A stretch of DNA of 42,214 nt, from NCBI GenBank assembly GCA_964429275.1, contig CAYSBJ010000002.1, positions 240,245-282,458 on the forward strand, read 5' to 3'. Under the pieces are notes generated by a model. That model had not been told where the DNA came from. It did not search any database and saw only the letters and a list, made by a program, of their open reading frames with translations. Numbering within the stretch: the stretch's first letter is position 1; every line of letters starts with the position of its first letter. Position numbers and translations under genes: made by a program. This stretch comes from an uncultured Pseudomonadota bacterium. Lineage in GTDB: Bacteria > Babelota > Babeliae > Babelales > JAUPTZ01. This document shows positions 4,114 to 27,294 of the stretch, piece after piece.

Positions 4114-4878
4114 TTAAGATTTCTTCAGCTTATCCATGTGCTCTTGTTTTGGTGCTTCTGCGAGCACTACCAGGTAAGGCTCAATTTTAGTTGCGAAATA
4201 GCGCGCAGCATTTTTGCCACAAAACAGGCATCCTGCTTCAGCGGCAAAAATGCTATATCCAAGTGTAAGTGGGAGCGCCGCAGCCCCCTCAAGTAATGGC
4301 AGTTCAATTCCAACTTCACTCGCGACTTTCTGTGGAAGACAACAACATAAAGCTGTTATATAAGAACAATAAAATACTTTATCACCAGAAGATAAGCGCG
4401 AAAACTTTTTTTTACAAAGGATGCATTTTTGCTCTATTGAGGGCTCTTCTGGGCCGACATTGCAAAGAAATATGCAGCACGAACAGGTACTCATTACCAT
4501 AGAATCATCAGTCAATGACTTTTTATAATGCACACCAAAATTGCACTTCCTTGGACAGCCTGCAAAACCTTTTTTAAGCGAATGTTTATTTACATACACC
4601 AAAGAAATCTTTTCGGCATTCAAAGTGTCATCATCAGGAATTTTTTCGGCATTCAAAATATCATCATCTTTTATTATGCCAATATAAGCGTTCTTTTTTC
4701 GGCACGCTTGTACGCATAAGATAGTTTCAGGAATAAGCCTTTGGCAACAGAAACAAACGCTAAATGCTAAGCAAACGTTGCCGCATGAAGAGCCGAGATC
4801 TCTCTCTGCTGCGTAGAGATGAATGCCACCTGCAAAAAAGAGCATTAAAGCAAACAAATAAAACCTATTAATTATCAT
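4114..4878 (-). CDS. Cys-rich exported hypothetical protein
   Basis: Signal-peptide-like MIINRFYLFALMLFFAGGIHLYA from ATG 4878; 21 Cys counted, including CFCC, CSCC, CCC and CxxC. Confidence 0.6.
   Translation of the reverse strand: MIINRFYLFALMLFFAGGIHLYAAERDLGSSCGNVCLAFSVCFCCQRLIPETILCVQACRKKNAYIGIIKDDDILNAEKIPDDDTLNAEKISLVYVNKHSLKKGFAGCPRKCNFGVHYKKSLTDDSMVMSTCSCCIFLCNVGPEEPSIEQKCILCKKKFSRLSSGDKVFYCSYITALCCCLPQKVASEVGIELPLLEGAAALPLTLGYSIFAAEAGCLFCGKNAARYFATKIEPYLVVLAEAPKQEHMDKLKKS
4604..4669 (-). repeat. Two-copy 33-nt tandem repeat (DDDILNAEKIP/DDDTLNAEKIS)
   Basis: Near-identical units 4604-4636 and 4637-4669, in frame within the Cys-rich CDS. Confidence 0.9.
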
Positions 4879-5206
4879 GTTTTTTCCTATTTCGAGGGTA
4901 CTTACAAAACATACCTGGCTTTGGTATGTAGTCTGGTTCTCCAAGAGCCTCTTCTTCGCTGCTTACTAAAACAGCATCATTCTTAATATCGTCTTTTGCC
5001 GCGCTACCGCAATCGCATTCACACGCGCAGAATCCCAAAGCAATAATACGCCGACATGTTTCTCTAGAGTGATTAAAACACCAAAGCTGCTCGCCAACCA
5101 GGGGCGCATCGGTCCTTGCGCAGCAATCTGCTCCTATAGAAGTCCGCATTTGTAGGGATAAAAACACGGTTAATGCTATAATCACTATGAGATTTTTAAG
5201 ATTCAT
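4868..5206 (-). CDS. Small Cys-rich exported hypothetical protein
   Basis: Signal peptide MNLKNLIVIIALTVFLSLQMRTSIGA; 9 Cys including CACECDC. Confidence 0.6.
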   Translation of the reverse strand: MNLKNLIVIIALTVFLSLQMRTSIGADCCARTDAPLVGEQLWCFNHSRETCRRIIALGFCACECDCGSAAKDDIKNDAVLVSSEEEALGEPDYIPKPGMFCKYPRNRKKHDN

Positions 5207-6171: not shown

Positions 6172-7620
6172 TCAATAACTCTTTGCCGCCAGTACTATAT
6201 GAGTTGCTGGCTTTTGGCAACAGAAGCACTGTGCCCCATCAGGTGCCACTTCGTCAAGTATACAGCGAATACTGCCCTTGTATGCTACCAGTGCCTCTTC
6301 GCATGATCGCTCAAAACACCAACCGGCTTTGACAAAGCCATTGTACTCTTCAATTGTTTTACCAAAGTCAGTCAGTGAACCACGAGCTGCATTAATTAAC
6401 TGTGCATCGCGGTAGGTCTTTGCACGTGCAAACAACAAGCTTGCCAGTGCCTTCAAGGCAACATGAACGGCACCAACCAATTCACCCGACATGACAACTG
6501 ACTTGCGATCTGCGCCTTCAGCAACAATGCGAGGGGCCAGCATAACGGAATGTTGCGCTACATCGCGCGGCCCCAGCTCCAAGCGAATTGGTACGCCTCG
6601 AAGTTCCCAGTGAAAGAACTTTGCACCAGGACGCTCATCACGAAGATCAATGTGCACGCGAACACCTGCCGTTTCAAGCGCCTGTTTGTGTGTGGTGGCA
6701 GCAGCAGTTACCACTGCTCTTTCTTCTTCGGTCTTAAAAATTGGTACGATAACCACTTGATATTGCGCAATAGCTGGTGGTAATACAAGGCCATTATCAT
6801 CGCCATGCACCATAACTGCTGCTCCAATCATGCGAGTAGTTGTTCCCCAGCTAGTACACCACGGCGATTTCATTTGGCCATCTTTATCTTGGAACTGGAC
6901 GCCGTAGGCCGCAGGAAAAGAATGAGCAAGCAAGTGGCTTGTTCCCATTTGAAGTGCTTTACCGTCTGGCATCATGCCTTCCATAGTAAAGGTTGCTTCG
7001 CCACCAGCAAATCGCTCTTTTGGTGTCTTTTCGCCCGAAAAAACAGGAATGCAAAGCTCTTCAGAAATGAATTTAATATACACGGCAAGCATTTCTTTGG
7101 CCTTTGCGAGCGCTTCTTCGCGAGTCGCGTGAGCAGTGTGGCCTTCTTGCCACAAGAATTCAGCAGTACGAATGAATGGCCGTGTGCGCATTTCCCAGCG
7201 CACGACATTTGCCCATTGATTTAATTGCATTGGCAGATCACGCCATGAAGTAATCCAGCGGGCCATCATATGGTAAATAATTGTTTCTGAAGTTGGGCGA
7301 ATAACGTATGGCTCTTCCAATTGCTTACCGCCGGCATGAGTCACCACTGCGAGTTCAGGAGAAAAGCCTTCAACGTGCTTTGCTTCTTTTTTAAGAAATG
7401 ATTCAGGTATTAGGAGTGGGAAATACGCATTTTCAATGCCTTTTTCTTTAAAGCGTGCGTCCATGATGCGCGTAATGTTTTCCCACAATGCATAGCCGTA
7501 TGGTCGCAGAACTACGCAGCCACGGGTTGGGCTTTCGTCAACGAGTTGAGATTGATAGATAACTTCATTGTACCAACCGAAAAAGTCTTGTGACTTTGAT
7601 GGCAACTTCTGGTTGCTCAT
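6172..7620 (-). CDS. proS: Proline--tRNA ligase, archaeal/eukaryote-like type (no INS editing domain)
   Basis: HVEGFSPE, RPTSET, NQWANVVRWE, FLWQEGHT, QMGTSH, SWGTTTR; C-terminal Cys-containing domain ending AKSY; 482 aa. Confidence 0.97.
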   Translation of the reverse strand: MSNQKLPSKSQDFFGWYNEVIYQSQLVDESPTRGCVVLRPYGYALWENITRIMDARFKEKGIENAYFPLLIPESFLKKEAKHVEGFSPELAVVTHAGGKQLEEPYVIRPTSETIIYHMMARWITSWRDLPMQLNQWANVVRWEMRTRPFIRTAEFLWQEGHTAHATREEALAKAKEMLAVYIKFISEELCIPVFSGEKTPKERFAGGEATFTMEGMMPDGKALQMGTSHLLAHSFPAAYGVQFQDKDGQMKSPWCTSWGTTTRMIGAAVMVHGDDNGLVLPPAIAQYQVVIVPIFKTEEERAVVTAAATTHKQALETAGVRVHIDLRDERPGAKFFHWELRGVPIRLELGPRDVAQHSVMLAPRIVAEGADRKSVVMSGELVGAVHVALKALASLLFARAKTYRDAQLINAARGSLTDFGKTIEEYNGFVKAGWCFERSCEEALVAYKGSIRCILDEVAPDGAQCFCCQKPATHIVLAAKSY

Positions 7621-7686: not shown

Positions 7687-9501
7687 TTAAACGCCGGGGA
7701 CCTTAATCAACGGAGGTTCGTCATGGTTACCTCCGCCGGAGACCACAGGGCGCGGTGGTACAGGCGAACCATTCGCATCTTTGATCGTCACCATGAGCGG
7801 CAGTGTCATAGTGCGTGTGGCGGGATCTTGAACTGGTGTGCCGACTGTAATAGACACCTCATTCCCCCTGTTGCCGGGGAGCGCAAGTGGCGGCAGCGGT
7901 AGCGGTAACGGCGTTTCTTGCGGAATAGTTGGCCTTGCGCGCGTCAGTTCTTGTGGCGCACGTGAAGTGGTGGCGGCCAGCACTGCCGTTGCCGCCTCAA
8001 TTGACGCGCTCGTAGTCTGAACAACAGGCTCGGCTGTCGATGCCGCCGAAATTGCTGTGGATCGTTTTTTTCTATGGCCGGCTAATAGTTGTACAAAATT
8101 GCTATCAAGCGCTTCTTGGAGATTTTTAGTGAGTCTGTTGCTTTCCGGTTTTGTCGGCTCTATAGGCGCCAAAACCGGCGCTGCAATAGGGAGCGTGTTG
8201 GGAGTCGTTGTTTCTGCTTCTGCTTCTACCGGCGCAGAGACGCTATCATTCTCAGGCACAACTTGTTTTTCGCTTTCGCGCGCTCCGGTAAAAAATTGGT
8301 ATGCCGTCGTCTTAAAGCCATCTTTTTTAATCGCATCCTGGGAGTATTCAGTAATAATCCAATCTCCTTTTTGCGCCGCCAGCTGAATAATGGCAAAAGC
8401 ATCATGAGTAAACTGCAAACCTTTTTGCATAACTAGGGTTGGCGCCGACATGAGAGTCCAGGTAGTAACCCCACCATCAGCCGGCAACTGTCGCAAACCT
8501 GTTGAAGACTGAAATGTCTGACGCTTCTTCTCAGATTGAAAAGCAACCTCAATAGTTATCTTGCTATTATGAGTTAGCCCCTCGGATATTTCGTGTTTAT
8601 CTAGAAGGCCATTTTGTTTTGCTTCTAAGAAGTGCGCATACGAATCCTCTTTAAGCTTACTGCTTACACTGCTCGCCAAATATGAGATTTTTATAAAATG
8701 ACCTGGATGATTTGGTACGGCCAAATACAGGCCCAGTGGTAAATGCATAAAAAAATTGTTTGTTGTTGCTATAAGCTGCTTAGACTCCTCTCCGCATTTG
8801 ATTTCATACTGCTCTTTTAAGCCAAAAGCCTCCCAATACTTATTGTCTTCGTGGTTGCCACGTAGATAAATGGCTGTATCTGCGTTCATCTCCATAAGAC
8901 GCAAAACAAGGCCAAGTGTTTCCATGCCATAGGGTGAGCGCGACATCGTCGACCCCATAAAGAGAATGTAGGTATCCGCTGCAATAATTTTGAGCGAGTC
9001 ATTAATAATATTGAGCTCCTTAAGTTTTTCCAGATCTCGTACAAGCGAGTGATAGGCACCATACAAATCACCAAAAATGACAAAGCGCGCTTTGGGCGCG
9101 GGGCTCATCTTATAGACAATGTCGCGCTCGACGCGATAACTTTTAAAGCGATTAAGCATCACATCAAGAAGTGAGCGAAAATATAATGAAGGCCAATCGA
9201 ATCGTGTTGGAAGATTGAGGCAACAGGCTATCGCACGCCACTTCCGCGTGAAATAGCCTGGTGTATTTGCACGATAAAAATAGTCGTAGTCAGGCCGCAC
9301 AAGATTGGTGTTTTCCATAGGAGGCAATTCCGGCATCGTCCGAGCGTACTCAGATGCTTCCTCAAGAGAGTTGAGACCGGTAATACAAATGGTTTCTGGC
9401 ACCAAGACAAGCAAGGTAAAAATAAATATGAAAGCAACCGCTGCTGCTATGTATACCTTGCGCGGTACAGCTAAAATCTTATTTACAATACTATTTTTCA
9501 T
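7687..9501 (-). CDS. Membrane-anchored PPP-family (calcineurin-like) phosphatase homolog with degenerate metal-binding motifs and a Pro/Thr/Ala-rich tail
   Basis: N-terminal TM helix. Motifs FGDLYG (cf. GDxHG), FMGSTMSRSPYGMETL (cf. LGDYVDRGxxSxE) and YLRGNHED (intact RGNHE). Confidence 0.8.
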   Translation of the reverse strand: MKNSIVNKILAVPRKVYIAAAVAFIFIFTLLVLVPETICITGLNSLEEASEYARTMPELPPMENTNLVRPDYDYFYRANTPGYFTRKWRAIACCLNLPTRFDWPSLYFRSLLDVMLNRFKSYRVERDIVYKMSPAPKARFVIFGDLYGAYHSLVRDLEKLKELNIINDSLKIIAADTYILFMGSTMSRSPYGMETLGLVLRLMEMNADTAIYLRGNHEDNKYWEAFGLKEQYEIKCGEESKQLIATTNNFFMHLPLGLYLAVPNHPGHFIKISYLASSVSSKLKEDSYAHFLEAKQNGLLDKHEISEGLTHNSKITIEVAFQSEKKRQTFQSSTGLRQLPADGGVTTWTLMSAPTLVMQKGLQFTHDAFAIIQLAAQKGDWIITEYSQDAIKKDGFKTTAYQFFTGARESEKQVVPENDSVSAPVEAEAETTTPNTLPIAAPVLAPIEPTKPESNRLTKNLQEALDSNFVQLLAGHRKKRSTAISAASTAEPVVQTTSASIEAATAVLAATTSRAPQELTRARPTIPQETPLPLPLPPLALPGNRGNEVSITVGTPVQDPATRTMTLPLMVTIKDANGSPVPPRPVVSGGGNHDEPPLIKVPGV

Positions 9502-9516
9502 CTACCCTCCGGACAG

Positions 9517-10590
9517 CTACCACAGTAATACATAGGCACTATACCCGACGAATACCGTCGAACTAAGGAGATATGCTATGTCATGCACGCGCTGCAACCA
9601 CATCATTGCAACTGCGGGGATTCCCTTGCCAGATTCTGTATAGAGACTAAGAAGCAATTGAAGCACAAATATTACCAGAAGAAGGAGCAAGTACAATACA
9701 TAGACAAGATCTGTTGTCGTTAAGTAACCGACAGACGGTATCATGCGATCGATAATAAAGCGGTAACTGAGAAGTGCCGTAAGCCCTGAGACGCTCATGC
9801 GCATGCGGCTGGCACTGTTAGAAAGACCCATAAGAAACGTTAGCATGCCAAAAAGCAATGCAATAAACATTGGTACAAAGATAATAATAATGTTGCGAAT
9901 GCTAGATTTTTCAAAGTTAATACTATAGGCAACCGCAGGGCGTAAAATGCGCTTGCTGTCATTGCGCGCGTCAAGAGAAAGTCTTAAGTAGCCCCAAGCG
10001 CTATCAAGATCTAGAATTTTCCAGTTACCGGTATACACATCAGGAGATATGCCAAAACAGCTGTTTTCTACGGTAAAATACATTTCGTTTGGGCCTACGC
10101 CATTATTTGTCATTACTAATGAAATACGATGGTCATCAAATGGATAGCGATAATAATTAAGATCGCTCTTAAACTCTATGCGCAAGTCGTACTTAATGAA
10201 CATAGTATGCCCGTTGATGCGAATATCTCCCGGGGTTTTTTCTAGTATTTTTGCGTTAATAAAGGAAAAGTCTTGAACGACATCGATCATGATTTCATCC
10301 GTTGGTAGCTCAAACCATACGACCGCTCCGATAAGAAAGCGGTCATTAGTGATATCGAAAACTTCAAAGTTTTTAATATACATGCCAGTTTTGACGACGC
10401 TGGCAAAATCACGAACTTCTTTGCGCATATTCATATCGATAAGTTGCAAATCAGGTTGGTGATCAGCAGGCCGGAATATAAAGAGCGCCATAATAAAAAA
10501 AGAAACAACAGCGCAAGAGGAAAGAACAAGACCTATTGCCTTAAACTTACCAGAGCCTATGCTATTCCAAAATCGTTGTGCTAGATACAT
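9517..10590 (-). CDS. Pentameric ligand-gated ion channel subunit (prokaryotic Pro-loop receptor, ELIC/GLIC-like)
   Basis: GMYIKNFEVFD..RF..VVW beta-sandwich start; DLNYYRYPFDDHRI Pro-loop; WKI; M1 IIIIFVPMFIALLFGMLTF; M2 SRMRMSVSGLTALLSYRF; M2-M3 loop IPSVGYLTTTD; M3 and M4; extra N-terminal hydrophobic anchor. Confidence 0.88.
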   Translation of the reverse strand: MYLAQRFWNSIGSGKFKAIGLVLSSCAVVSFFIMALFIFRPADHQPDLQLIDMNMRKEVRDFASVVKTGMYIKNFEVFDITNDRFLIGAVVWFELPTDEIMIDVVQDFSFINAKILEKTPGDIRINGHTMFIKYDLRIEFKSDLNYYRYPFDDHRISLVMTNNGVGPNEMYFTVENSCFGISPDVYTGNWKILDLDSAWGYLRLSLDARNDSKRILRPAVAYSINFEKSSIRNIIIIFVPMFIALLFGMLTFLMGLSNSASRMRMSVSGLTALLSYRFIIDRMIPSVGYLTTTDLVYVLYLLLLLVIFVLQLLLSLYTESGKGIPAVAMMWLQRVHDIAYLLSSTVFVGYSAYVLLW

Positions 10591-11925
10591 CTATTGCCCC
10601 TTTTCGCGGTATTCATCCCATTGCTCGTCATTTCCTTTATTTAGCCAGACGGACCAGGAAAGAGTTTGATTGCGATATTTTAAATGTAGCCCCTTGAATT
10701 CAAAGGCCGGTGCTTGCGCAATATGCTGTAAAAGCTGCCCAACTGTCACCGAAGATTGACACTGCTCTAGAAAATGAAGAAGTAATGAAGCTGTAATATA
10801 GCCCTCAAGTGATTCTGCTGAAAGTCCTTTGTTCGGTAGGTATTCTTGCATGTATTTTCGATATTCCTGCACTATTGGCAGTTGGCTTTTTCGAGGACTT
10901 GGCACAACAGAGGCCGTAATCATGCTCATGCCGCGTGACTCCTTCAATTGCTTAGTAATGCGTTCACAACAAGATAACCCAAGAAAAGAAGCATAATGAA
11001 GCTGTTGATTAATCGCTTCTCGCACAAAATTATAAGTTGGGCGACCATTCGCAAGGCATAAGACGACTTGAGGATCACTTTTTTTAATTGTTGCAACCGC
11101 GGGGCCTACCATTACCGTATTGGGTTGATAGGAGGCGCTCCCGCATACTTTCAAATTATATTTGCGCCGGAGTATATCGACTGTGGCATTTCGTGCTTCA
11201 ATGCCCCAAGCACTTTCTTCGTAAAAAACCGCTATTTTATCCTGCTTAAGAGTATTAATTGCATAATCAAGAAGCGCGCGAATTTCTTGGCGATATGGAG
11301 GTCGATACCATATTACTGGCATACCACTCGTGACACGAGCTCGCATTCCGACGAGCGGAAAAAGTACCGCTATAGCATTGCGTGCCAGAAGCGGAATATA
11401 AACCTTTTCAAAAACCATTTCGCCAAATGGTGAGAAAAAAATAGGTGTCTTACTCAAAAGATCGTAGAGGTGTGGCGTTGCGCGCAAAACGCGACCGCTA
11501 TCATCTCGCTGGTCCAGGGAAAGATGGTATTTTTTCCACGCACCACCTTTCGTTGTATTTACTCTATTAAGAAACAAGAATAGACCATCGCTCAGGGCAG
11601 TTCCTGGCAAGCCAAGTTCCCCAGTTTTTGGAATAGTAGATCCCAGTAGAATTTGGGCATTACACACAAGCGGTTTTTGCTGCACCGAATCAGATGGTAT
11701 CTTCATGGAAACGTTTTCTGGTAGTGGCTGCGGCGCCAAAAGTTCCGAGTCTCCCGTACCAGTAAATTCATTATTGATATTTTCAGTAACGATCTTTTTT
11801 GCCTGATGTATCGATCGCTTCCAATAATAAACAGTTGCTCCTATGAGAACTGCAAAAACTGCAATTACAACCGCTGCAGTAAAGAATGGGGGAAGGATAC
11901 TTTTCTTTGGTAGATTTTTTGCCAT
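10591..11925 (-). CDS. Membrane-anchored type 1 periplasmic binding (LivK/Venus-flytrap-like) protein
   Basis: LGSTIPKTGELGLPG, RDDSG, RPPYRQEI, KIAVFYEESAWG, SVVPSP, SLEGYITA are typical of branched-chain amino-acid-binding-like PBP1 folds. N-terminal TM helix; no ABC permease/ATPase nearby. Confidence 0.85.
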   Translation of the reverse strand: MAKNLPKKSILPPFFTAAVVIAVFAVLIGATVYYWKRSIHQAKKIVTENINNEFTGTGDSELLAPQPLPENVSMKIPSDSVQQKPLVCNAQILLGSTIPKTGELGLPGTALSDGLFLFLNRVNTTKGGAWKKYHLSLDQRDDSGRVLRATPHLYDLLSKTPIFFSPFGEMVFEKVYIPLLARNAIAVLFPLVGMRARVTSGMPVIWYRPPYRQEIRALLDYAINTLKQDKIAVFYEESAWGIEARNATVDILRRKYNLKVCGSASYQPNTVMVGPAVATIKKSDPQVVLCLANGRPTYNFVREAINQQLHYASFLGLSCCERITKQLKESRGMSMITASVVPSPRKSQLPIVQEYRKYMQEYLPNKGLSAESLEGYITASLLLHFLEQCQSSVTVGQLLQHIAQAPAFEFKGLHLKYRNQTLSWSVWLNKGNDEQWDEYREKGQ

Positions 11926-12050: not shown

Positions 12051-12632
12051 ATGGCGGCGCCACTTATTATTATTTCTGGGCCTTCCGGAGCAGGTAAAAC
12101 AACTACCACTGATCACCTCTTAGCCCACATGCCATCACTCTCGCGAGTTATCACGGTGACAACACGTCTTCCGCGCAGCGGCGAACACCATGGCGTCCAT
12201 TACTTTTTTGTATCACGCCAGACATTTCAAGAGTTGGCAGCGACGGCAGCATTTTTGGAAATAAATCAATTTGGTGAACATTTATATGGAACCCCGCGTA
12301 GCCTATTAACTTTTTTAACTCGCAACAACGCCCGGCTTGTGTTGCCAGATATAAATGGAGCCCGCGCTCTAAAGAAGCATGTGCCAACAGCCGTATGCAT
12401 TTGGATTGAAGCACCAGCTGAACTACTTGCACAGCGACTAATAGGGCGCAATAGTGAATCAACAAAGGATCAAGAAATGCGTTTGCTAATGGCACAAATT
12501 GAAATGCGAGAGGCTCGCGTAAGCGGTCTTTATGAGCACATTATTGATATGACAGACTTTGGTATCGCAGAAGAAAAAATTAGAAAAATAATTGATGCTG
12601 CTATGCGGCAGGAGCCGCTTCGTAAGGGTTAG
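12051..12632 (+). CDS. gmk: Guanylate kinase
   Basis: ISGPSGAGKTT, TTRLPRSGE..GVHYFFVS, FLE, YGTP. Confidence 0.93.
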   Translation: MAAPLIIISGPSGAGKTTTTDHLLAHMPSLSRVITVTTRLPRSGEHHGVHYFFVSRQTFQELAATAAFLEINQFGEHLYGTPRSLLTFLTRNNARLVLPDINGARALKKHVPTAVCIWIEAPAELLAQRLIGRNSESTKDQEMRLLMAQIEMREARVSGLYEHIIDMTDFGIAEEKIRKIIDAAMRQEPLRKG

Positions 12633-14172
12633 GCAAGTCATCATTGTCTATATCAACCACTGAATGATCAATTAATGGAGGCAACTTACCCATTTCACGT
12701 AAAACCTCATCAGACGTCTCTTTGGTTGCAACATTTTGCGAAAGGAAGTCGAGGCGCTCTTTAAGGCGCTCAATAAACGCTTCCAACTCTCGTCCAGGAG
12801 ACCCCTTCATTATATTCGCAATGTTTGCCGTACTTACCTCCATTTTATATCCCTTGCTTGCAAGGAGGCGATCTGCATAAAGGTCCAATATCATTTTGCG
12901 CTGGCGTGGCGCTGGAAGACCAATGCTAATTTGACGCGTAAATCGACTAAGTAATGCGTTGTCCATGCGACCGATGTGGTTGGTCGCCGCAATAACCATG
13001 AAGCGGGTGGATGGCTGTGCTATTTCATCAAGAAGGTGGTCAAGAAACCCGCGGTTTGCATTTTCTTTTTCTTTGCCACGCTGACCGGTCATGCCATCAA
13101 CTTCGTCGAGGAAAATAATAGTATTTCCTCGACGCCGGGCCCTTGCAAACATTTCTTTGAGTACCGCAATACGGTCACCTTCTGATTTTATCTGCATAAA
13201 GTCGGAGGCCATAAGACGAATGAATTCCATCGGTTTTCCATCGTCACCAATAGCTTGGTCGGCAATGTATTGTGCAATACTTGTTTTGGCAGTTCCCGGA
13301 GGTCCCCACAGAAGAACGCGTGGCAAGGTAAGTGGTTTCTTTGTTTTTTGTGTTACTTCTTGGCGACGATTGACGAGGAATATAAGCTCGTTAACTTGTT
13401 TGCGTGTTTCGGAAGGAAGAATAAGGTCATTTTCGCCCAGCAATCCTTCAGGTTTTTTACCAAACCAGCCAGATTTGCGCCGACGGACAGTATAAATAGA
13501 GGGTTTATCAAAGGCTTCACGGATCTTGTTACGCATCCATTCGGTGCCACCAAATTTATTAAAGATATACGCCATACCACTGACAATGATGGTGATCTTG
13601 GTTAAAAGGTCAATAATATCTTTATTTGCATAATACTTTGCCATGATAGGGTTGATTATTTTTTCAAACAAACCAAGCACCGCATTGCTCTTCCAGCCCG
13701 GATTTTCTATCTGATTTATTTGGGCGCGGGTGTACGGAAGATTATTCTCTATGTCTTCGCGGAGTGCCTTTTCGGTAAGGTCCCAGCTAGCCTGTCCAAC
13801 AAGGTTATCGATTTCTTCAGGCTCATAAAGAAGAGTCTTTCCATCTGCTTGCTTCAGTCCCTTGAGCATCTCAGCGCGGTTATGCGCAGACTGGCTAATG
13901 GTATATAAAAGCTTTTTTAAATGAGGATTTTCGAGCGTTGTTTTTGTCAGTTTTGCCTGCGGAATTCGGCTTTGGCTATAAAATCCCCGGTTCAATTTTC
14001 CGCGTCGTTGTTTTGACGCTCGACCTGGTTTGCCGGCTACAACATCCCTGACGAACTCTCCTCGTAGCGCAGGAACTCGAGCCTCCACGCTATCTGCGAC
14101 AGCGTCGGCTGCTGATAAGCCAGCACCCCACACAATAAAAAAAAAACCAAGCCATCGATTGATTAGGTACAT
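12601..14172 (-). CDS. Signal-peptide- and TM-bearing AAA+ ATPase (ATAD3-like architecture)
   Basis: Signal-like N-terminus from ATG 14172; TM ITIIVSGMAYIF; Walker A variant GPPGTAKT; Walker B IIFLDEVD; SRH AATNH..MDNALLSRF. Confidence 0.85.
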   Translation of the reverse strand: MYLINRWLGFFFIVWGAGLSAADAVADSVEARVPALRGEFVRDVVAGKPGRASKQRRGKLNRGFYSQSRIPQAKLTKTTLENPHLKKLLYTISQSAHNRAEMLKGLKQADGKTLLYEPEEIDNLVGQASWDLTEKALREDIENNLPYTRAQINQIENPGWKSNAVLGLFEKIINPIMAKYYANKDIIDLLTKITIIVSGMAYIFNKFGGTEWMRNKIREAFDKPSIYTVRRRKSGWFGKKPEGLLGENDLILPSETRKQVNELIFLVNRRQEVTQKTKKPLTLPRVLLWGPPGTAKTSIAQYIADQAIGDDGKPMEFIRLMASDFMQIKSEGDRIAVLKEMFARARRRGNTIIFLDEVDGMTGQRGKEKENANRGFLDHLLDEIAQPSTRFMVIAATNHIGRMDNALLSRFTRQISIGLPAPRQRKMILDLYADRLLASKGYKMEVSTANIANIMKGSPGRELEAFIERLKERLDFLSQNVATKETSDEVLREMGKLPPLIDHSVVDIDNDDLPNPYEAAPAA

Positions 14173-14258
14173 TGCATCCTTTTTTTCATATCCGAGTTGT
14201 AGTTTAACATGAGAGCAAGGCACCTGAACACAATCTGCCGAAGTTTTTTGAAAAAAGG

Positions 14259-25038: not shown

Positions 25039-25473
25039 ATGAAAAGTAAAAAACATCGCTTCAAAATAGGCAAAATGGTCCGCGACAAAATGCCCGATGT
25101 TCTGCGCGCGCTCGACATTCACCCGACAACATACGTACTAGGCCCGGATGCATACCTAGAGCATCTCAATAAAAAGCTTCTCGAAGAAGCAGTAGAGGTT
25201 GTATCGGCCGCCTCTGCAAAGGAAAAAGCTGAGGAGCTCGGCGACGTACTGGAGGTCTTATATGCTCTCGCAGCAAGCCTTGGGATGACCATGGAGGATA
25301 TTGAGCGAATTCGACAAGAAAAAACAGGCAAGCGCGGTGGTTTTACTAAAGGCATATTCTGCGAGTACGACGAACTACGCGAAGACAATTTATACTACAA
25401 CTTCTACCTCAGCAGGCGTGATCAATACCCTGAATTAGAAATACCAACAGAAGAACAAGAATCTCTTAAATAA
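25039..25473 (+). CDS. MazG-like all-alpha NTP pyrophosphohydrolase (COG4997-type), paralog 1
   Basis: KMVRDKMP, KKLLEEAVE, EELGDVLE, K...RGGF. Confidence 0.88.
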   Translation: MKSKKHRFKIGKMVRDKMPDVLRALDIHPTTYVLGPDAYLEHLNKKLLEEAVEVVSAASAKEKAEELGDVLEVLYALAASLGMTMEDIERIRQEKTGKRGGFTKGIFCEYDELREDNLYYNFYLSRRDQYPELEIPTEEQESLK

Positions 25474-25485
25474 AAGGAGCCTCCC

Positions 25486-25902
25486 ATGGCAAATAAACGT
25501 CGATTCAGTGCTGAAAAACTTCTGCGCGAAAAAGTTCCAGCTCTTATGCAGGAAAAAGGTATTTTCTTTAAAACTCGCCTCGTCAGTGGCGAAGAGCTCG
25601 CTCGACAATTAGAAGAAAAAATAGCAGAAGAAGTCCTGGAAACAATCGTTGCAACCGCAAAGGAAAAAAAGATCTCCGAATTGGCCGACACACTGGAAGC
25701 CATCGCATCTTTAGCTCATGCACTCGGCTCATCTATGCAAGAAGTCGAAACCGTGCGCCAAAAGAAGCGTGCTGAGCAAGGCGGCTATGAAAAAGGAATC
25801 TATGCAGAATACGCAGAAATGGATGAAAACAACGCCCATATTAAGCATTACCTCAACAATCCAGACCGCTATCCCGAAATGCCGGTTACACCAGAAAAAT
25901 AA
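25486..25902 (+). CDS. MazG-like NTP pyrophosphohydrolase, paralog 2
   Basis: KLLREKVP, KIAEEVLE, SELADTLE, QGGYEKGI, RYPE; RBS AAGGAG. Confidence 0.85.
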   Translation: MANKRRFSAEKLLREKVPALMQEKGIFFKTRLVSGEELARQLEEKIAEEVLETIVATAKEKKISELADTLEAIASLAHALGSSMQEVETVRQKKRAEQGGYEKGIYAEYAEMDENNAHIKHYLNNPDRYPEMPVTPEK

Positions 25903-25972
25903 CGCGGTGCGACCTAAATTGGAAAGACATATGGGACGCGTTATCGGCCATCAGTAAAATCGTAGGGACCCC

Positions 25973-26464
25973 ATGACACACATAACCGCTAAAGCGGCCC
26001 AAGCCATACAGACTGCACTCAATGAACATGGACTTAAGTGCACCGCTGTTGAAATGCCAGGCTCTACGCGTACTGCCCAAAAAGCTACAGAGGGAATTGG
26101 TTGCAAAGTCGCACAGATCGCAAAATCACTGATTTTCAAAACGCTTGGCAATAAGCCAGTATTCGTCCTGGCCTCAGGCCCAAACCGCGTAAGTGAAAAG
26201 GCCATTGAGGCCTAGATAGGAGAAAAAATAGCCAAGGCTGATGCCGATTTTGTCCGCTAAGTAAACGGCTTTGCTATTGGCGGCATTCCGCTGATAGGTC
26301 ATCGACAAAAAATTGATCACGTTTTCATTGACCAAAACCTGCTTAAATTTGAAAATGTATGGGCCGCAGCCGGCACCCCACAGAGCGTATTTAACATAGA
26401 AACAGAAGCACTCTGCGGAATCGTACCGGGTAAGATAATTGCCGTAACAGAAGAGAAAAAATAA
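25973..26464 (+). pseudogene. YbaK/EbsC-family aminoacyl-tRNA deacylase pseudogene
   Basis: Continuous frame STRTAQ..GC.VAQIAKSLIF..ASGPNRV..ADADFVR*VNGFAIGGIP..GH..VWAAAGTP, with in-frame stops TAG 26213 and TAA 26258; natural stop TAA 26462. Confidence 0.88.
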
Positions 26465-26475
26465 AGGAATTAATT

Positions 26476-26877
26476 ATGACATCACGACGTCGATTTAGCG
26501 CTGCAAAAATTGTTCGCAGCAGAACAGCAGAGCTCTTAGAAAAACGTAACGCAATAATTAAAACACGACACCTTGAAATGCCAGAATATATTCTGCATTT
26601 AGAAAAGAAGCTAATCGAGGAAGCCAATGAGGTTGTAGAAGCTGTCACCGCAGAAGAACGAATTTCAGAACTCGCCGACGCGTTAGAAGTCATAAATGCC
26701 CTTGCCACCACCACTGGCTCCTCTTTCGAAGAAATCGAACGCGTCAGACAAGAAAAGCTCATTGCGCGCGGCGGCTACGACCAGCGTATCTACTGCGAAT
26801 ATGTTGAAGTAAGCGCTGATAACGAACTCGCCCAGTATTATCAAGAACACCACTACCCAGAAATACCGGTTGAATAA
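26476..26877 (+). CDS. MazG-like NTP pyrophosphohydrolase, paralog 3
   Basis: KIVRSRTA, KKLIEEANE, SELADALE, RGGYDQRIYCEY, HYPE. Confidence 0.85.
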   Translation: MTSRRRFSAAKIVRSRTAELLEKRNAIIKTRHLEMPEYILHLEKKLIEEANEVVEAVTAEERISELADALEVINALATTTGSSFEEIERVRQEKLIARGGYDQRIYCEYVEVSADNELAQYYQEHHYPEIPVE

Positions 26878-26892
26878 CACAAGGAATACACA

Positions 26893-27294
26893 ATGACAGC
26901 GCGATCACGATTTAGCCATGAAAAACTTGTCCGCAGCAGAACCGCCGAGCGACTTGAGAAGCGCGGCGCACTAGTAAAAACGCGGCAACTTGAACTGCCA
27001 GAATACATAACAAACCTCGAAAAAAAACTCGTTGAGGAAGCCGAAGAAGTCATGAGCACCTCTACCCCAGAGCAGCGCATATCAGAACTCGCCGATGTAC
27101 TTGAAATTATAAACGCCCTCTCTGTAGCAACCGGCTTCTCACTCGAAGATGTTGAGCGCATTCGACAAAAAAAATTGGTTGAGCGCGGAGGCCTTGATCA
27201 ACGCATCTATTGCGAATACGTAGAGGTGGATACCGACAACGAATTGGCCAAGTACTATCGAGAAAACCATTACCCAGAAACACCGGTCAAATAA
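26893..27294 (+). CDS. MazG-like NTP pyrophosphohydrolase, paralog 4 (close duplicate of paralog 3)
   Basis: KLVRSRTA, KKLVEEAEE, SELADVLE, RGGLDQRIYCEY, HYPE; same 133-aa length as paralog 3. Confidence 0.85.
   Translation: MTARSRFSHEKLVRSRTAERLEKRGALVKTRQLELPEYITNLEKKLVEEAEEVMSTSTPEQRISELADVLEIINALSVATGFSLEDVERIRQKKLVERGGLDQRIYCEYVEVDTDNELAKYYRENHYPETPVK

Follow-up and report, generated by a model that had tools for sequence, protein, structure and literature searches.

The locus analyzed here raises the question of why a bacterium should encode, in one tightly packed row, a periplasmic binding protein (PBP), a relative of the ligand-gated ion channels of the pentameric type (pLGICs), and a protein with the fold of the eukaryote-type phosphoprotein phosphatases (PPP). 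The row lies on the minus strand of a 42,214-nucleotide stretch (hereafter, the window, G000:C2:240245-282458) from the genome of an uncultured member of the Babelales, which comprises 1.21 Mb in 8 contigs and is 97.95% complete; the public names of close relatives assign it to Candidatus Dependentiae/Babeliales (TM6). pLGICs are the receptors of fast synaptic transmission, and the main structural models are supplied by their bacterial relatives; the natural roles of these relatives are largely unknown. The three proteins of the window very probably work together, and we consider it somewhat better than an even bet that they constitute one periplasmic receptor-channel, in which the PBP would act as the sensor and the PPP-fold protein as a non-catalytic adaptor or second sensor. 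This reading is carried by the folds of the three proteins, the decay of the phosphatase active site, the recurrence of the gene order in related genomes, and the existence of single proteins in which the same parts are fused.

Organization of the locus

Three open reading frames (ORFs) on the minus strand, at 10591-11925, 9517-10590, and 7687-9501, encode proteins of 444, 357, and 604 residues, and coincide exactly with the three co-directional genes of a preliminary description made from the sequence. The gaps of 0 and 15 nucleotides given there can both be read in the DNA: the stop codon of the PBP gene directly abuts the start codon of the channel gene (CAA-TAG-ATG at 10593-10588), and the spacer ahead of the PPP gene holds a GGAGG ribosome-binding site. 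The N-terminal membrane anchors attributed to all three proteins were recovered as well, in the form of one strongly hydrophobic segment apiece (Kyte-Doolittle hydropathy 2.6-2.9). The main features of the row are the following:

10591-11925, minus strand: gene 1, membrane-tethered type-1 PBP of the Peripla_BP_6/HAAT family, 444 residues (ORF, Pfam and PDB matches)
10588-10593, minus strand: TAG/ATG junction of the PBP and channel genes, 0-nucleotide gap (reads ...CAA TAG ATG TAT...)
9517-10590, minus strand: gene 2, divergent pLGIC (Pro-loop receptor) subunit, 357 residues (AF2 model, Foldseek, VIA-align, GLIC and LGIC_1 matches)
9502-9516, minus strand: spacer of 15 nucleotides with GGAGG between the channel and PPP genes (reads TGG TAG ctgtccggagggtag ATG)
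7687-9501, minus strand: gene 3, PPP-fold protein anchored in the membrane, active site degenerate, 604 residues (ORF, Pfam, match to the PP2A catalytic subunit, model)

Between positions 7400 and 12300, 10 promoter-like and 5 terminator-like sites were found, compared to the 9.0 and 5.3 expected from shuffled sequences. An Rfam scan of the window returned one tRNA and nothing else, and therefore no RNA element belongs to the module. Fourteen DNA metagenome rows contain the whole or part of the stretch, two of them with at least half of its words.

A divergent pLGIC subunit

The channel protein escapes the curated models of the pLGIC family. Pfam, including PF02931 and PF02932, gave no match at E<=1, and the NCBIfam model LGIC_1 reached 42.4 bits (E 5.5e-11) against a curated cut-off of 500. 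A link to GLIC is still significant at the sequence level, since GLIC chains match residues 126-322 at E ~1e-8 in a phmmer search of PDB sequences. An AlphaFold2 (AF2) model, built on an alignment of 89 family members, has a predicted local distance difference test score (pLDDT) of 96.1 and a predicted template modelling score (pTM) of 0.89, and Foldseek relates it to GABA-A, GLIC, and GlyR at E ~1e-18 with probability 1.00. VIA-align superposes 277-287 of its residues, over positions 58-357, on GABA-A, GlyR, and GLIC with Z 21.7-22.6, in an alignment that takes in the four membrane helices as well as the extracellular domain, at 12-17% identity to the solved pLGIC chains. Thus, the product of 9517-10590 does model as a pLGIC, a point on which the preliminary description had staked its identification. 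The confirmation by profile hidden Markov models (HMMs) and Foldseek that it had proposed was obtained for the PBP (PF13458), for the PPP-fold protein (Metallophos), and, through Foldseek, for the channel, and failed for the channel in Pfam.

Both the combination of a beta-sandwich with a four-helix bundle and the Pro-loop of the form [FY]-P-x-D are present in the protein, which is preceded by an additional N-terminal helix:

10480-10551, minus strand: extra N-terminal helix TM0, residues 14-37 (model helix; hydropathy 2.62)
9907-10401, minus strand: extracellular beta-sandwich domain, residues 64-228 (model strands; aligns with pLGIC extracellular domains)
10135-10146, minus strand: Pro-loop motif YPFD at residues 149-152, then D153 and H154 (sequence)
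9523-9897, minus strand: transmembrane domain, with M1 at residues 232-253, M2 at 259-283, M3 at 292-320, and M4 at 326-356 (model, GLIC alignment, column counts)

The Pro-loop is almost invariant across the family, with P150 and an aromatic residue (F/Y149) in 89/89 sequences and H154 in 87/89. The loop between M3 and M4 is very short in the model.

The register of M2 was taken from the GLIC alignment, where F14' and N15' of GLIC (named in PDB titles) correspond to Y276 and R277. Position 9' is then T271, occupied by Thr in 51/89 and by Ser in 14/89 members of the family, and position 16' is F278, with Phe in 77/89. The residues found at the M2 positions of the 89 sequences are S/T/G at 2', G/A/S/T at 6', T/S at 9', and A/G/S at 13', and none of the top four residues at -1'/-2' in the same alignment is acidic. 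In pLGICs, 9' is usually a hydrophobic gate residue (Leu or Ile), and a Glu at -1' is a mark of cation channels. Given the Thr at 9' and the lack of a conserved acid at -1'/-2', the pore counts as atypical, and the sequence does not reveal its selectivity; the hydrophobic 9' gate and the charged -1'/-2' ring that it lacks are typical of pLGICs, though not strictly defining.

Within the family, PF02931 touches 2/89 and PF02932 1/89 members at E<=0.01, and it is because these Pfam models miss nearly all of them that family members are labelled 'hypothetical protein'. In the genome of the window, the channel gene is present in a single copy.

A PPP-fold protein with a decayed active site

The third protein passes the Pfam Metallophos cut-off narrowly (25.7 bits against 21.5; E 1.8e-5), and PP2A catalytic subunits match it at E 7e-5. 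An AF2 model of residues 40-430 (pLDDT 88.5, pTM 0.89) retrieves PP5, PPZ1, PP2A, PP1, and calcineurin at E ~1e-11 with Foldseek, and VIA-align places 245-269 of its residues on RDGC, PP5, and PP1 with Z 21-22.8 and a root-mean-square deviation of ~3 Å. As the alignment covers residues 7-300 of PP1, the whole eukaryote-type PPP catalytic domain is present. The fold of the PPP family is therefore in place, and its three signature motifs are not all intact:

9400-9456, minus strand: N-terminal signal-anchor helix, residues 16-34 (hydropathy 2.91)
8275-9384, minus strand: PPP catalytic-domain fold of the PP1/PP2A/PP5 type, residues 40 to ~409 (AF2, VIA-align)
9058-9072, minus strand: motif I, GDLYG instead of the canonical GDxHG, His replaced by Tyr (PP2A alignment; His in 12/90 domains)
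8935-8955, minus strand: motif II, GSTMSRS instead of the canonical GDxVDRG, both Asp replaced by Ser, Arg kept (alignment, family census)
8848-8859, minus strand: motif III, GNHE, intact (alignment; N, H, and E in 60/90, 78/90, and 88/90 domains of the census)
7690-8241, minus strand: C-terminal tail of 184 residues, 421-604, rich in Pro, Ala, and Thr (27, 23, and 22 of 184, respectively)

Seven canonical residues were scored, namely the D and H of motif I, the D, D, and R of motif II, and the N and H of motif III. The protein of the window retains 4/7. The complete set is found in 0/88 channel-linked domains and in 2/90 domains overall (P0208 and P0209, whose matches extend over only a third of the query and which are not known to be channel-linked), and a few relatives (P0117 and two L053 domains) reach 6/7. 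The census of 90 domains also showed which positions persist: R188 is retained in 77, N216 in 60, H217 in 78, and E218 in 88, together with a family-specific H151 in 83. The protein of the window is predicted to be non-catalytic, in line with the dead phosphatase of the preliminary description.

The C-terminal tail is probably disordered, with the final modelled residues at pLDDT <50, and its length varies, orthologues ranging from 449 to 679 residues. In the orthologue of a relative of the same genus (G003:C15:86304-88082), one in-frame TGA lies within the match, and it could be a sequencing error, the mark of a truncated tail, or a sign of gene decay.

A tethered binding protein without a dedicated transporter

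Residues 94-408 of the first protein match PF13458 Peripla_BP_6 with E 3.7e-22 (79.9 bits, cut-off 31.7), in keeping with the fold of the HAAT family, and the closest solved relatives in sequence and profile searches of solved structures, namely 3lop (E 2.6e-19), 4kv7, and 4m88, belong to the same family. An amino-acid-like ligand had been proposed for this protein, a claim that these searches do not sustain: they yield binding proteins of the broad HAAT/Peripla_BP_6 family only and assign no ligand, because the relatives are named merely as generic substrate-, ligand-, or Leu/Ile/Val-binding proteins. The membrane tether consists of a single segment:

11824-11898, minus strand: signal-anchor helix at the N-terminus of the PBP, residues ~10-34 (hydropathy reaches 2.61 over residues 10-28)

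A linker of ~55 residues separates this anchor from the binding domain, and no Cys follows the hydrophobic stretch in the translation, that is, there is no lipobox Cys.

HAAT proteins would be expected to work with LivH/LivM permeases and LivG/LivF ATPases of an ATP-binding cassette (ABC) importer, and these partners were looked for in the whole genome. The PBP gene is its sole Peripla_BP_6 match. There are only two BPD_transp_2 permease genes, both outside the window, and each stands by itself with one ATPase gene; one of the two adjoins a PF04392 binding protein. No permease pair of the LivH/LivM type was found in the 97.95%-complete genome, in agreement with the earlier statement that the PBP has no ABC transporter genes of its own. 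As a separate observation, the PF04392 binding-protein family has 39 matches in this 1.2-Mb genome, compared to two matching permease genes.

Gene order, fusions, and distribution

The linkage of the three genes was surveyed in 41 related genomes with the channel, PBP, and PPP proteins as queries, scoring partners on the same strand within 1.5 kb. Matches to the channel were found in 23 genomes, to the PBP in 22 (the same families as the channel), and to the PPP-fold protein in 30, the excess of the latter being short matches to paralogues. A PBP and/or PPP match lies within 1.5 kb of 31/34 channel genes in these relatives. The PBP is upstream and the PPP downstream in 11 of the 34, the PBP alone is upstream in nine, and both PPP and PBP are downstream in eight; of the remainder, two show both arrangements, one has the PPP only, and three have neither. 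Where PPP and PBP are both downstream, they often form one contiguous frame of 724-1901 residues, with up to four PBP domains (e.g., G028:C1).

A second sample consisted of 49 loci from named assemblies, found with patterns from a 12-row alignment and with the partners called by local HMMs. This sample is biased to the subfamily of the window, because the patterns came from its closer relatives. The order PBP-channel-PPP is seen in 36 loci of this gene-neighbourhood survey, which the preliminary description had suggested for the trio; six loci hold a channel together with PPP-PBP(n) fusions, three hold a channel alone, and four belong to the same clade and are incomplete (L031, L041, and L044, truncated at the end of a contig or locus, and L059). 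Recurrence in 36/49 related loci places the arrangement far beyond chance. In a quick IQ-TREE phylogeny of the 49 channels (a careful search is unfinished, and the midpoint root is for drawing only), the 40 rows with an upstream PBP fall on one side of a branch with an SH-like approximate likelihood ratio test (SH-aLRT) support of 100, and the three-gene layout is therefore characteristic of a single, coherent subfamily of channels. Several contigs bearing the module (L022, L024, L025, L027, and others) are titled 'uncultured Pseudomonadota', and one (L041) 'Sulfurovum sp.'; these titles are probably wrong, because the channels nest among Babeliales in the tree.

An exhaustive search of 1.84 billion representative sequences returned 1039 channel matches at E<=0.001, 238 of them at E<=1e-30. 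Among the best 150 of the 1039 are 11 proteins of 971-1112 residues that begin with the channel and end with Peripla_BP_6, and in 10 of these 11 a PPP domain lies between the two. One protein of 767 residues consists of channel and PBP only. In a sample of the phylum, the channel family is present in 114/201 genomes, 99/177 high-quality genomes, and 74/120 genera, often with two or three copies per genome. The Rosetta-stone fusions, together with the common phyletic pattern, make a functional unit very likely. The split receptor complex suggested in the preliminary description likewise gains support from the conserved gene order and from the PPP-PBP and channel-PPP-PBP fusions of relatives.

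Some members of the channel family carry further N-terminal parts. Six proteins of 541-604 residues (P0054, P0056, P0063, P0080, P0088, and P0133) hold an extension of ~220 residues ahead of the channel, which comprises about 6-7 hydrophobic helices and matches nothing in Pfam, and two others of 446-448 residues (P0095 and P0164) hold shorter extensions of ~110-120 residues with 3-4 helices. After two frames that encode such extended channels (G031:C56:35468-36403 and G011:C1:6576-7439), PPP-PBP fusion proteins come next.

A further ORF accompanies the module in part of the relatives. Directly after the PPP gene, 20 of the 43 loci whose flanks were surveyed, all 20 of the PBP-channel-PPP order, have a homologous ORF of ~720-810 residues (for example, L029:7882-10050, L024:7820-10021, and L040:8012-10240), which shows a weak similarity, below the cut-off, to outer-membrane barrels of the Alginate_exp/AlgE type. 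Three paralogues of this ORF lie on contig C1 of the genome studied here (G000:C1:111388-116113 and 234974-236755). In the window, the gene that comes after the PPP gene is that of prolyl-tRNA synthetase (proS).

Membrane topology

The location of the two partners was approached through the charges that flank their anchors. Summed over 19 orthologues, 80 Lys and Arg residues lie within 15 positions of the PBP anchor on its N side, compared to 39 on its C side; for the PPP anchor, the sums are 79 and 17. This bias obeys the positive-inside rule, and an N-in/C-out orientation is therefore favored, with the PBP and the PPP-fold protein predicted to be exported. In the triple fusions, hydropathy reveals no further strongly hydrophobic helix after M4. 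All solved pLGICs have the end of M4 outside the cell, and by this topology the PPP-PBP part of these fusions would be located on the side of the extracellular domain.

The linker after M4 begins with ...YYLL(Y/F)xW-K/R in P0051, P0058, P0070, P0098, P0121, and P0145 (residues ~335-380). The end of the PBP anchor of the window (..VYYW-KRS.., window 11800-11830) resembles this pattern, and the channel of the window ends with ..VLLW. The W-K/R pattern may reflect a common interfacial motif, or else be a vestige of the splitting or joining of genes.

A putative receptor-channel and its alternatives

The receptor-channel favored here would sit in the inner membrane and face the periplasm. The 357-residue protein would form a homopentameric channel of the pLGIC type, and the PBP, held by its own signal-anchor, would capture a small solute, after which its closed form would dock on the outer domain of the channel and bias gating. 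The PPP-fold protein, which would always be tethered near the membrane, whether through an anchor of its own or through M4, is expected to be a non-enzyme structural adaptor that keeps the PBP at the channel or, alternatively, a second regulatory subunit, possibly able to bind an anion or phosphate. The output of the system would be an ion flux.

Several observations weigh against this model. Conduction and selectivity cannot be assumed for a channel with such an atypical pore, and R188, N216, H217, E218, and H151 of the PPP-fold protein are conserved beyond the need of a pure scaffold. Moreover, the PPP-fold protein is not universal, since 9/34 channel genes have an upstream PBP only (at least two of them at contig ends) and L059 shows no PPP in the 5 kb downstream, while channel genes stand alone in 3/34 and 3/49 cases. 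With regard to topology, the PBP of the window, taken by itself, is nearly balanced, with four Lys and Arg residues before its anchor and three after it, and the triple fusions have a stretch of 30-40 residues after M4 with many Lys and Arg, a composition unusual in segments that are translocated. The L014 permease-ATPase pair of the genome has no adjoining binding-protein gene, and it could therefore make use of the PBP of the window. Finally, a search of sequencing runs for the locus listed no RNA run carrying it.

A bolder version of the receptor-channel would have two inputs and a composition of about 5:5:5. The former active site of the PPP-fold protein, as a sensor site built of the conserved Arg, Asn, and His together with the added His, would perceive a phosphorylated or anionic host metabolite, and the PBP a second solute; only both together would open the pore, giving an obligate intracellular parasite an electrical signal that it is inside its host. 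We regard this version as speculative and rather doubtful. If true, a pLGIC would for the first time be seen to include a pseudoenzyme subunit, and a PPP-fold protein would for the first time be found acting as a ligand sensor outside the cytoplasm.

Other readings of the module were weighed as well. The PBP might hand a small solute to a wide, polar pore of the pLGIC type for passive import, with no signalling involved, which we consider unlikely, though it deserves to be taken seriously. Small or polar residues occupy the positions predicted to line the pore throughout the family, several relatives have up to four PBP domains per PPP protein, as a broad capture would need, the ORF that follows the PPP gene in 20/43 loci, with its weak barrel similarity, would let a solute in, and it is established that Dependentiae depend on host metabolites. 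However, no pLGIC is known as a nutrient importer, the Phe at 16' in 77/89 sequences would narrow the pore, a passive flux has no need of a high-affinity binding protein, and the present results identify no substrate. It has also to be considered that the PPP-fold protein could be a wholly or partly working periplasmic phosphoesterase, which would free the ligand from a phosphorylated precursor beside the PBP and the channel. The retention of GNHE, of the motif-II Arg, and, in the window protein, of the motif-I Asp, the 6/7 residues of P0117 and the two L053 domains, and the Metallophos score over the cut-off all speak for an enzyme, but they are set against the Tyr in place of the motif-I His and the Ser in place of both motif-II Asp residues in the window protein, a Tyr at the later 'HGG'-like position where many relatives have His, and the absence of the full set of seven residues from all 88 channel-linked domains, so that enzymatic activity appears improbable.

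The remaining two readings concern where the partners act and whether they are partners at all. If the PPP and PBP parts were cytoplasmic, they would work on the channel from its inner face, much as an intracellular regulatory domain does. The Lys/Arg-rich linkers after M4 in the triple fusions and the K/R residues on both sides of the PBP anchor in the window would fit this location, and cytoplasmic sensors with a PBP fold, such as AmiC and the LacI family, exist; yet the extracellular C-terminus of M4 in all solved pLGICs, the lack of an extra hydrophobic helix after M4 in the fusions, and the summed charge bias of the orthologues, N-in/C-out for both partners, render a cytoplasmic location very unlikely. 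Even less credible is an incidental adjacency, with the PBP being the ordinary binding protein of an ABC importer encoded elsewhere. Although relatives are publicly annotated as 'branched-chain amino acid transport system substrate-binding protein', and the L014 pair is a potential user, the ABC-importer reading was rejected because of the lack of a LivHM-type pair in the genome, the PBP-channel and PPP-PBP fusions known among relatives, the phyletic pattern that the PBP has in common with the channel, and the membrane tether of the PBP. An ABC system encoded elsewhere, which the preliminary description had named as a finding that would refute it, is very improbable.

Comparison with known systems

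A partnership between PBPs and pLGICs has been predicted since 2005, when Tasneem, Iyer, Jakobsson, and Aravind described bacterial 'ART-LGICs' with fused PBP-I domains or with operonic PBP-II or Cache proteins (PMC549065, to the extent of the text available). As in the module of the window, a pLGIC was combined there with a sensor of PBP fold, the linkage was drawn from fusions and operons, and a role in the chemoreception of small solutes was predicted. The arrangements described in the available text are, however, different: a PBP-I domain at the N-terminus of the channel, or a PBP-II protein in the operon, compared to a separate, tethered PBP-I in the window, which therefore has no N-terminal PBP-I fusion and does not belong to the PBP-I-fused ART-LGICs. 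The fusions found among relatives of the window are C-terminal, after M4. The PPP-fold protein constitutes a third component, and the word 'phosphatase' occurs 0 times in the available text of PMC549065. A further difference from the ART-LGICs is that the channel family of the window escapes the Pfam pLGIC models almost entirely.

GLIC, ELIC, and sTeLIC are solved prokaryotic pLGICs that stand alone, and DeCLIC has an N-terminal periplasmic domain. The channel of the window shares with all four the subunit fold, the Pro-loop, and the short M3-M4 loop, and the conserved Phe at 16' of its family is also found in ELIC. It differs from these solved channels in its TM0 helix, its Thr at 9', and its 12-17% identity. 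In DeCLIC, the accessory periplasmic domain has been reported to modulate gating (PMC12664993 and PMC9897478, from the parts of these texts available); that domain is made of calcium-binding lobes, whereas the accessory parts of the window channel are separate PBP-I and PPP subunits.

With PP1, PP2A, PP5, PPZ1, RDGC/PPEF, and calcineurin A, the third protein has in common the whole catalytic fold, GNHE, and the motif-II Arg. Unlike these eukaryote-type phosphatases, it is membrane-anchored, predicted to face the periplasm, altered at the motif-I His and the motif-II Asp residues, predicted to be non-catalytic, and joined to a channel and a PBP by gene linkage or fusion. The closure of a Venus-flytrap domain is relayed to a membrane protein in MBP-Tar, LuxP-LuxQ, TorT-TorS, and the clamshells of iGluR/NMDA receptors. 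These systems use a kinase, a chemoreceptor, or a tetrameric P-loop channel as output, compared to a pentameric channel of the Cys-loop type in the window, and none of them is known to include a phosphatase-fold subunit.

In the literature covered, which did not extend to subscription journals and supplements, nothing was found on channels or PBPs of Dependentiae/Babeliales or on a pLGIC combined with a metallophosphoesterase, and a term search of the available text of Jaiteh et al. 2016 (PMC4795631) found no mention of PBPs or phosphatases. No paper was thus found on a PPP partner of a pLGIC, and the element without precedent is the pseudo-phosphatase subunit, within the known theme of bacterial pLGICs with accessory sensor domains. 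The module is real, conserved, and uncharacterized.

Its channel belongs to a large, unrecognized branch of the pLGICs, with about 1,000 representatives at E<=0.001 and a presence in 114/201 sampled Dependentiae genomes, that Pfam misses. The combination of a Venus-flytrap sensor with a dead phosphatase, as separate proteins or within a single chain, would offer a natural system for the external gating of a pLGIC, and the PPP-fold protein would represent a rare case of a eukaryote-type phosphatase fold recruited as a periplasmic pseudoenzyme, as predicted from its anchor and motifs. The module is relevant to the question of how host-dependent bacteria with reduced genomes sense what surrounds them or draw on it.

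Other features of the window

A guanylate kinase gene (12051-12632, plus strand) and the gene of a 540-residue AAA+ ATPase (12601-14223, minus strand) converge, with an overlap of 32 nucleotides at their 3' ends. The ATPase domain of the latter comprises residues 303-435, preceded by a long N-terminal region. At 4868-5206 (minus strand), an ORF of 112 residues encodes a protein with an N-terminal hydrophobic, signal-like segment and many Cys residues, with no Pfam match. Finally, a row of small ORFs of 80-144 residues occupies 25039-27294 (plus strand), a stretch with a strong skew of A over T. They resemble a cluster of paralogues, because three of them (25039-25473, 26476-26877, and 26893-27294) show weak MazG/PRA-PH-like matches.

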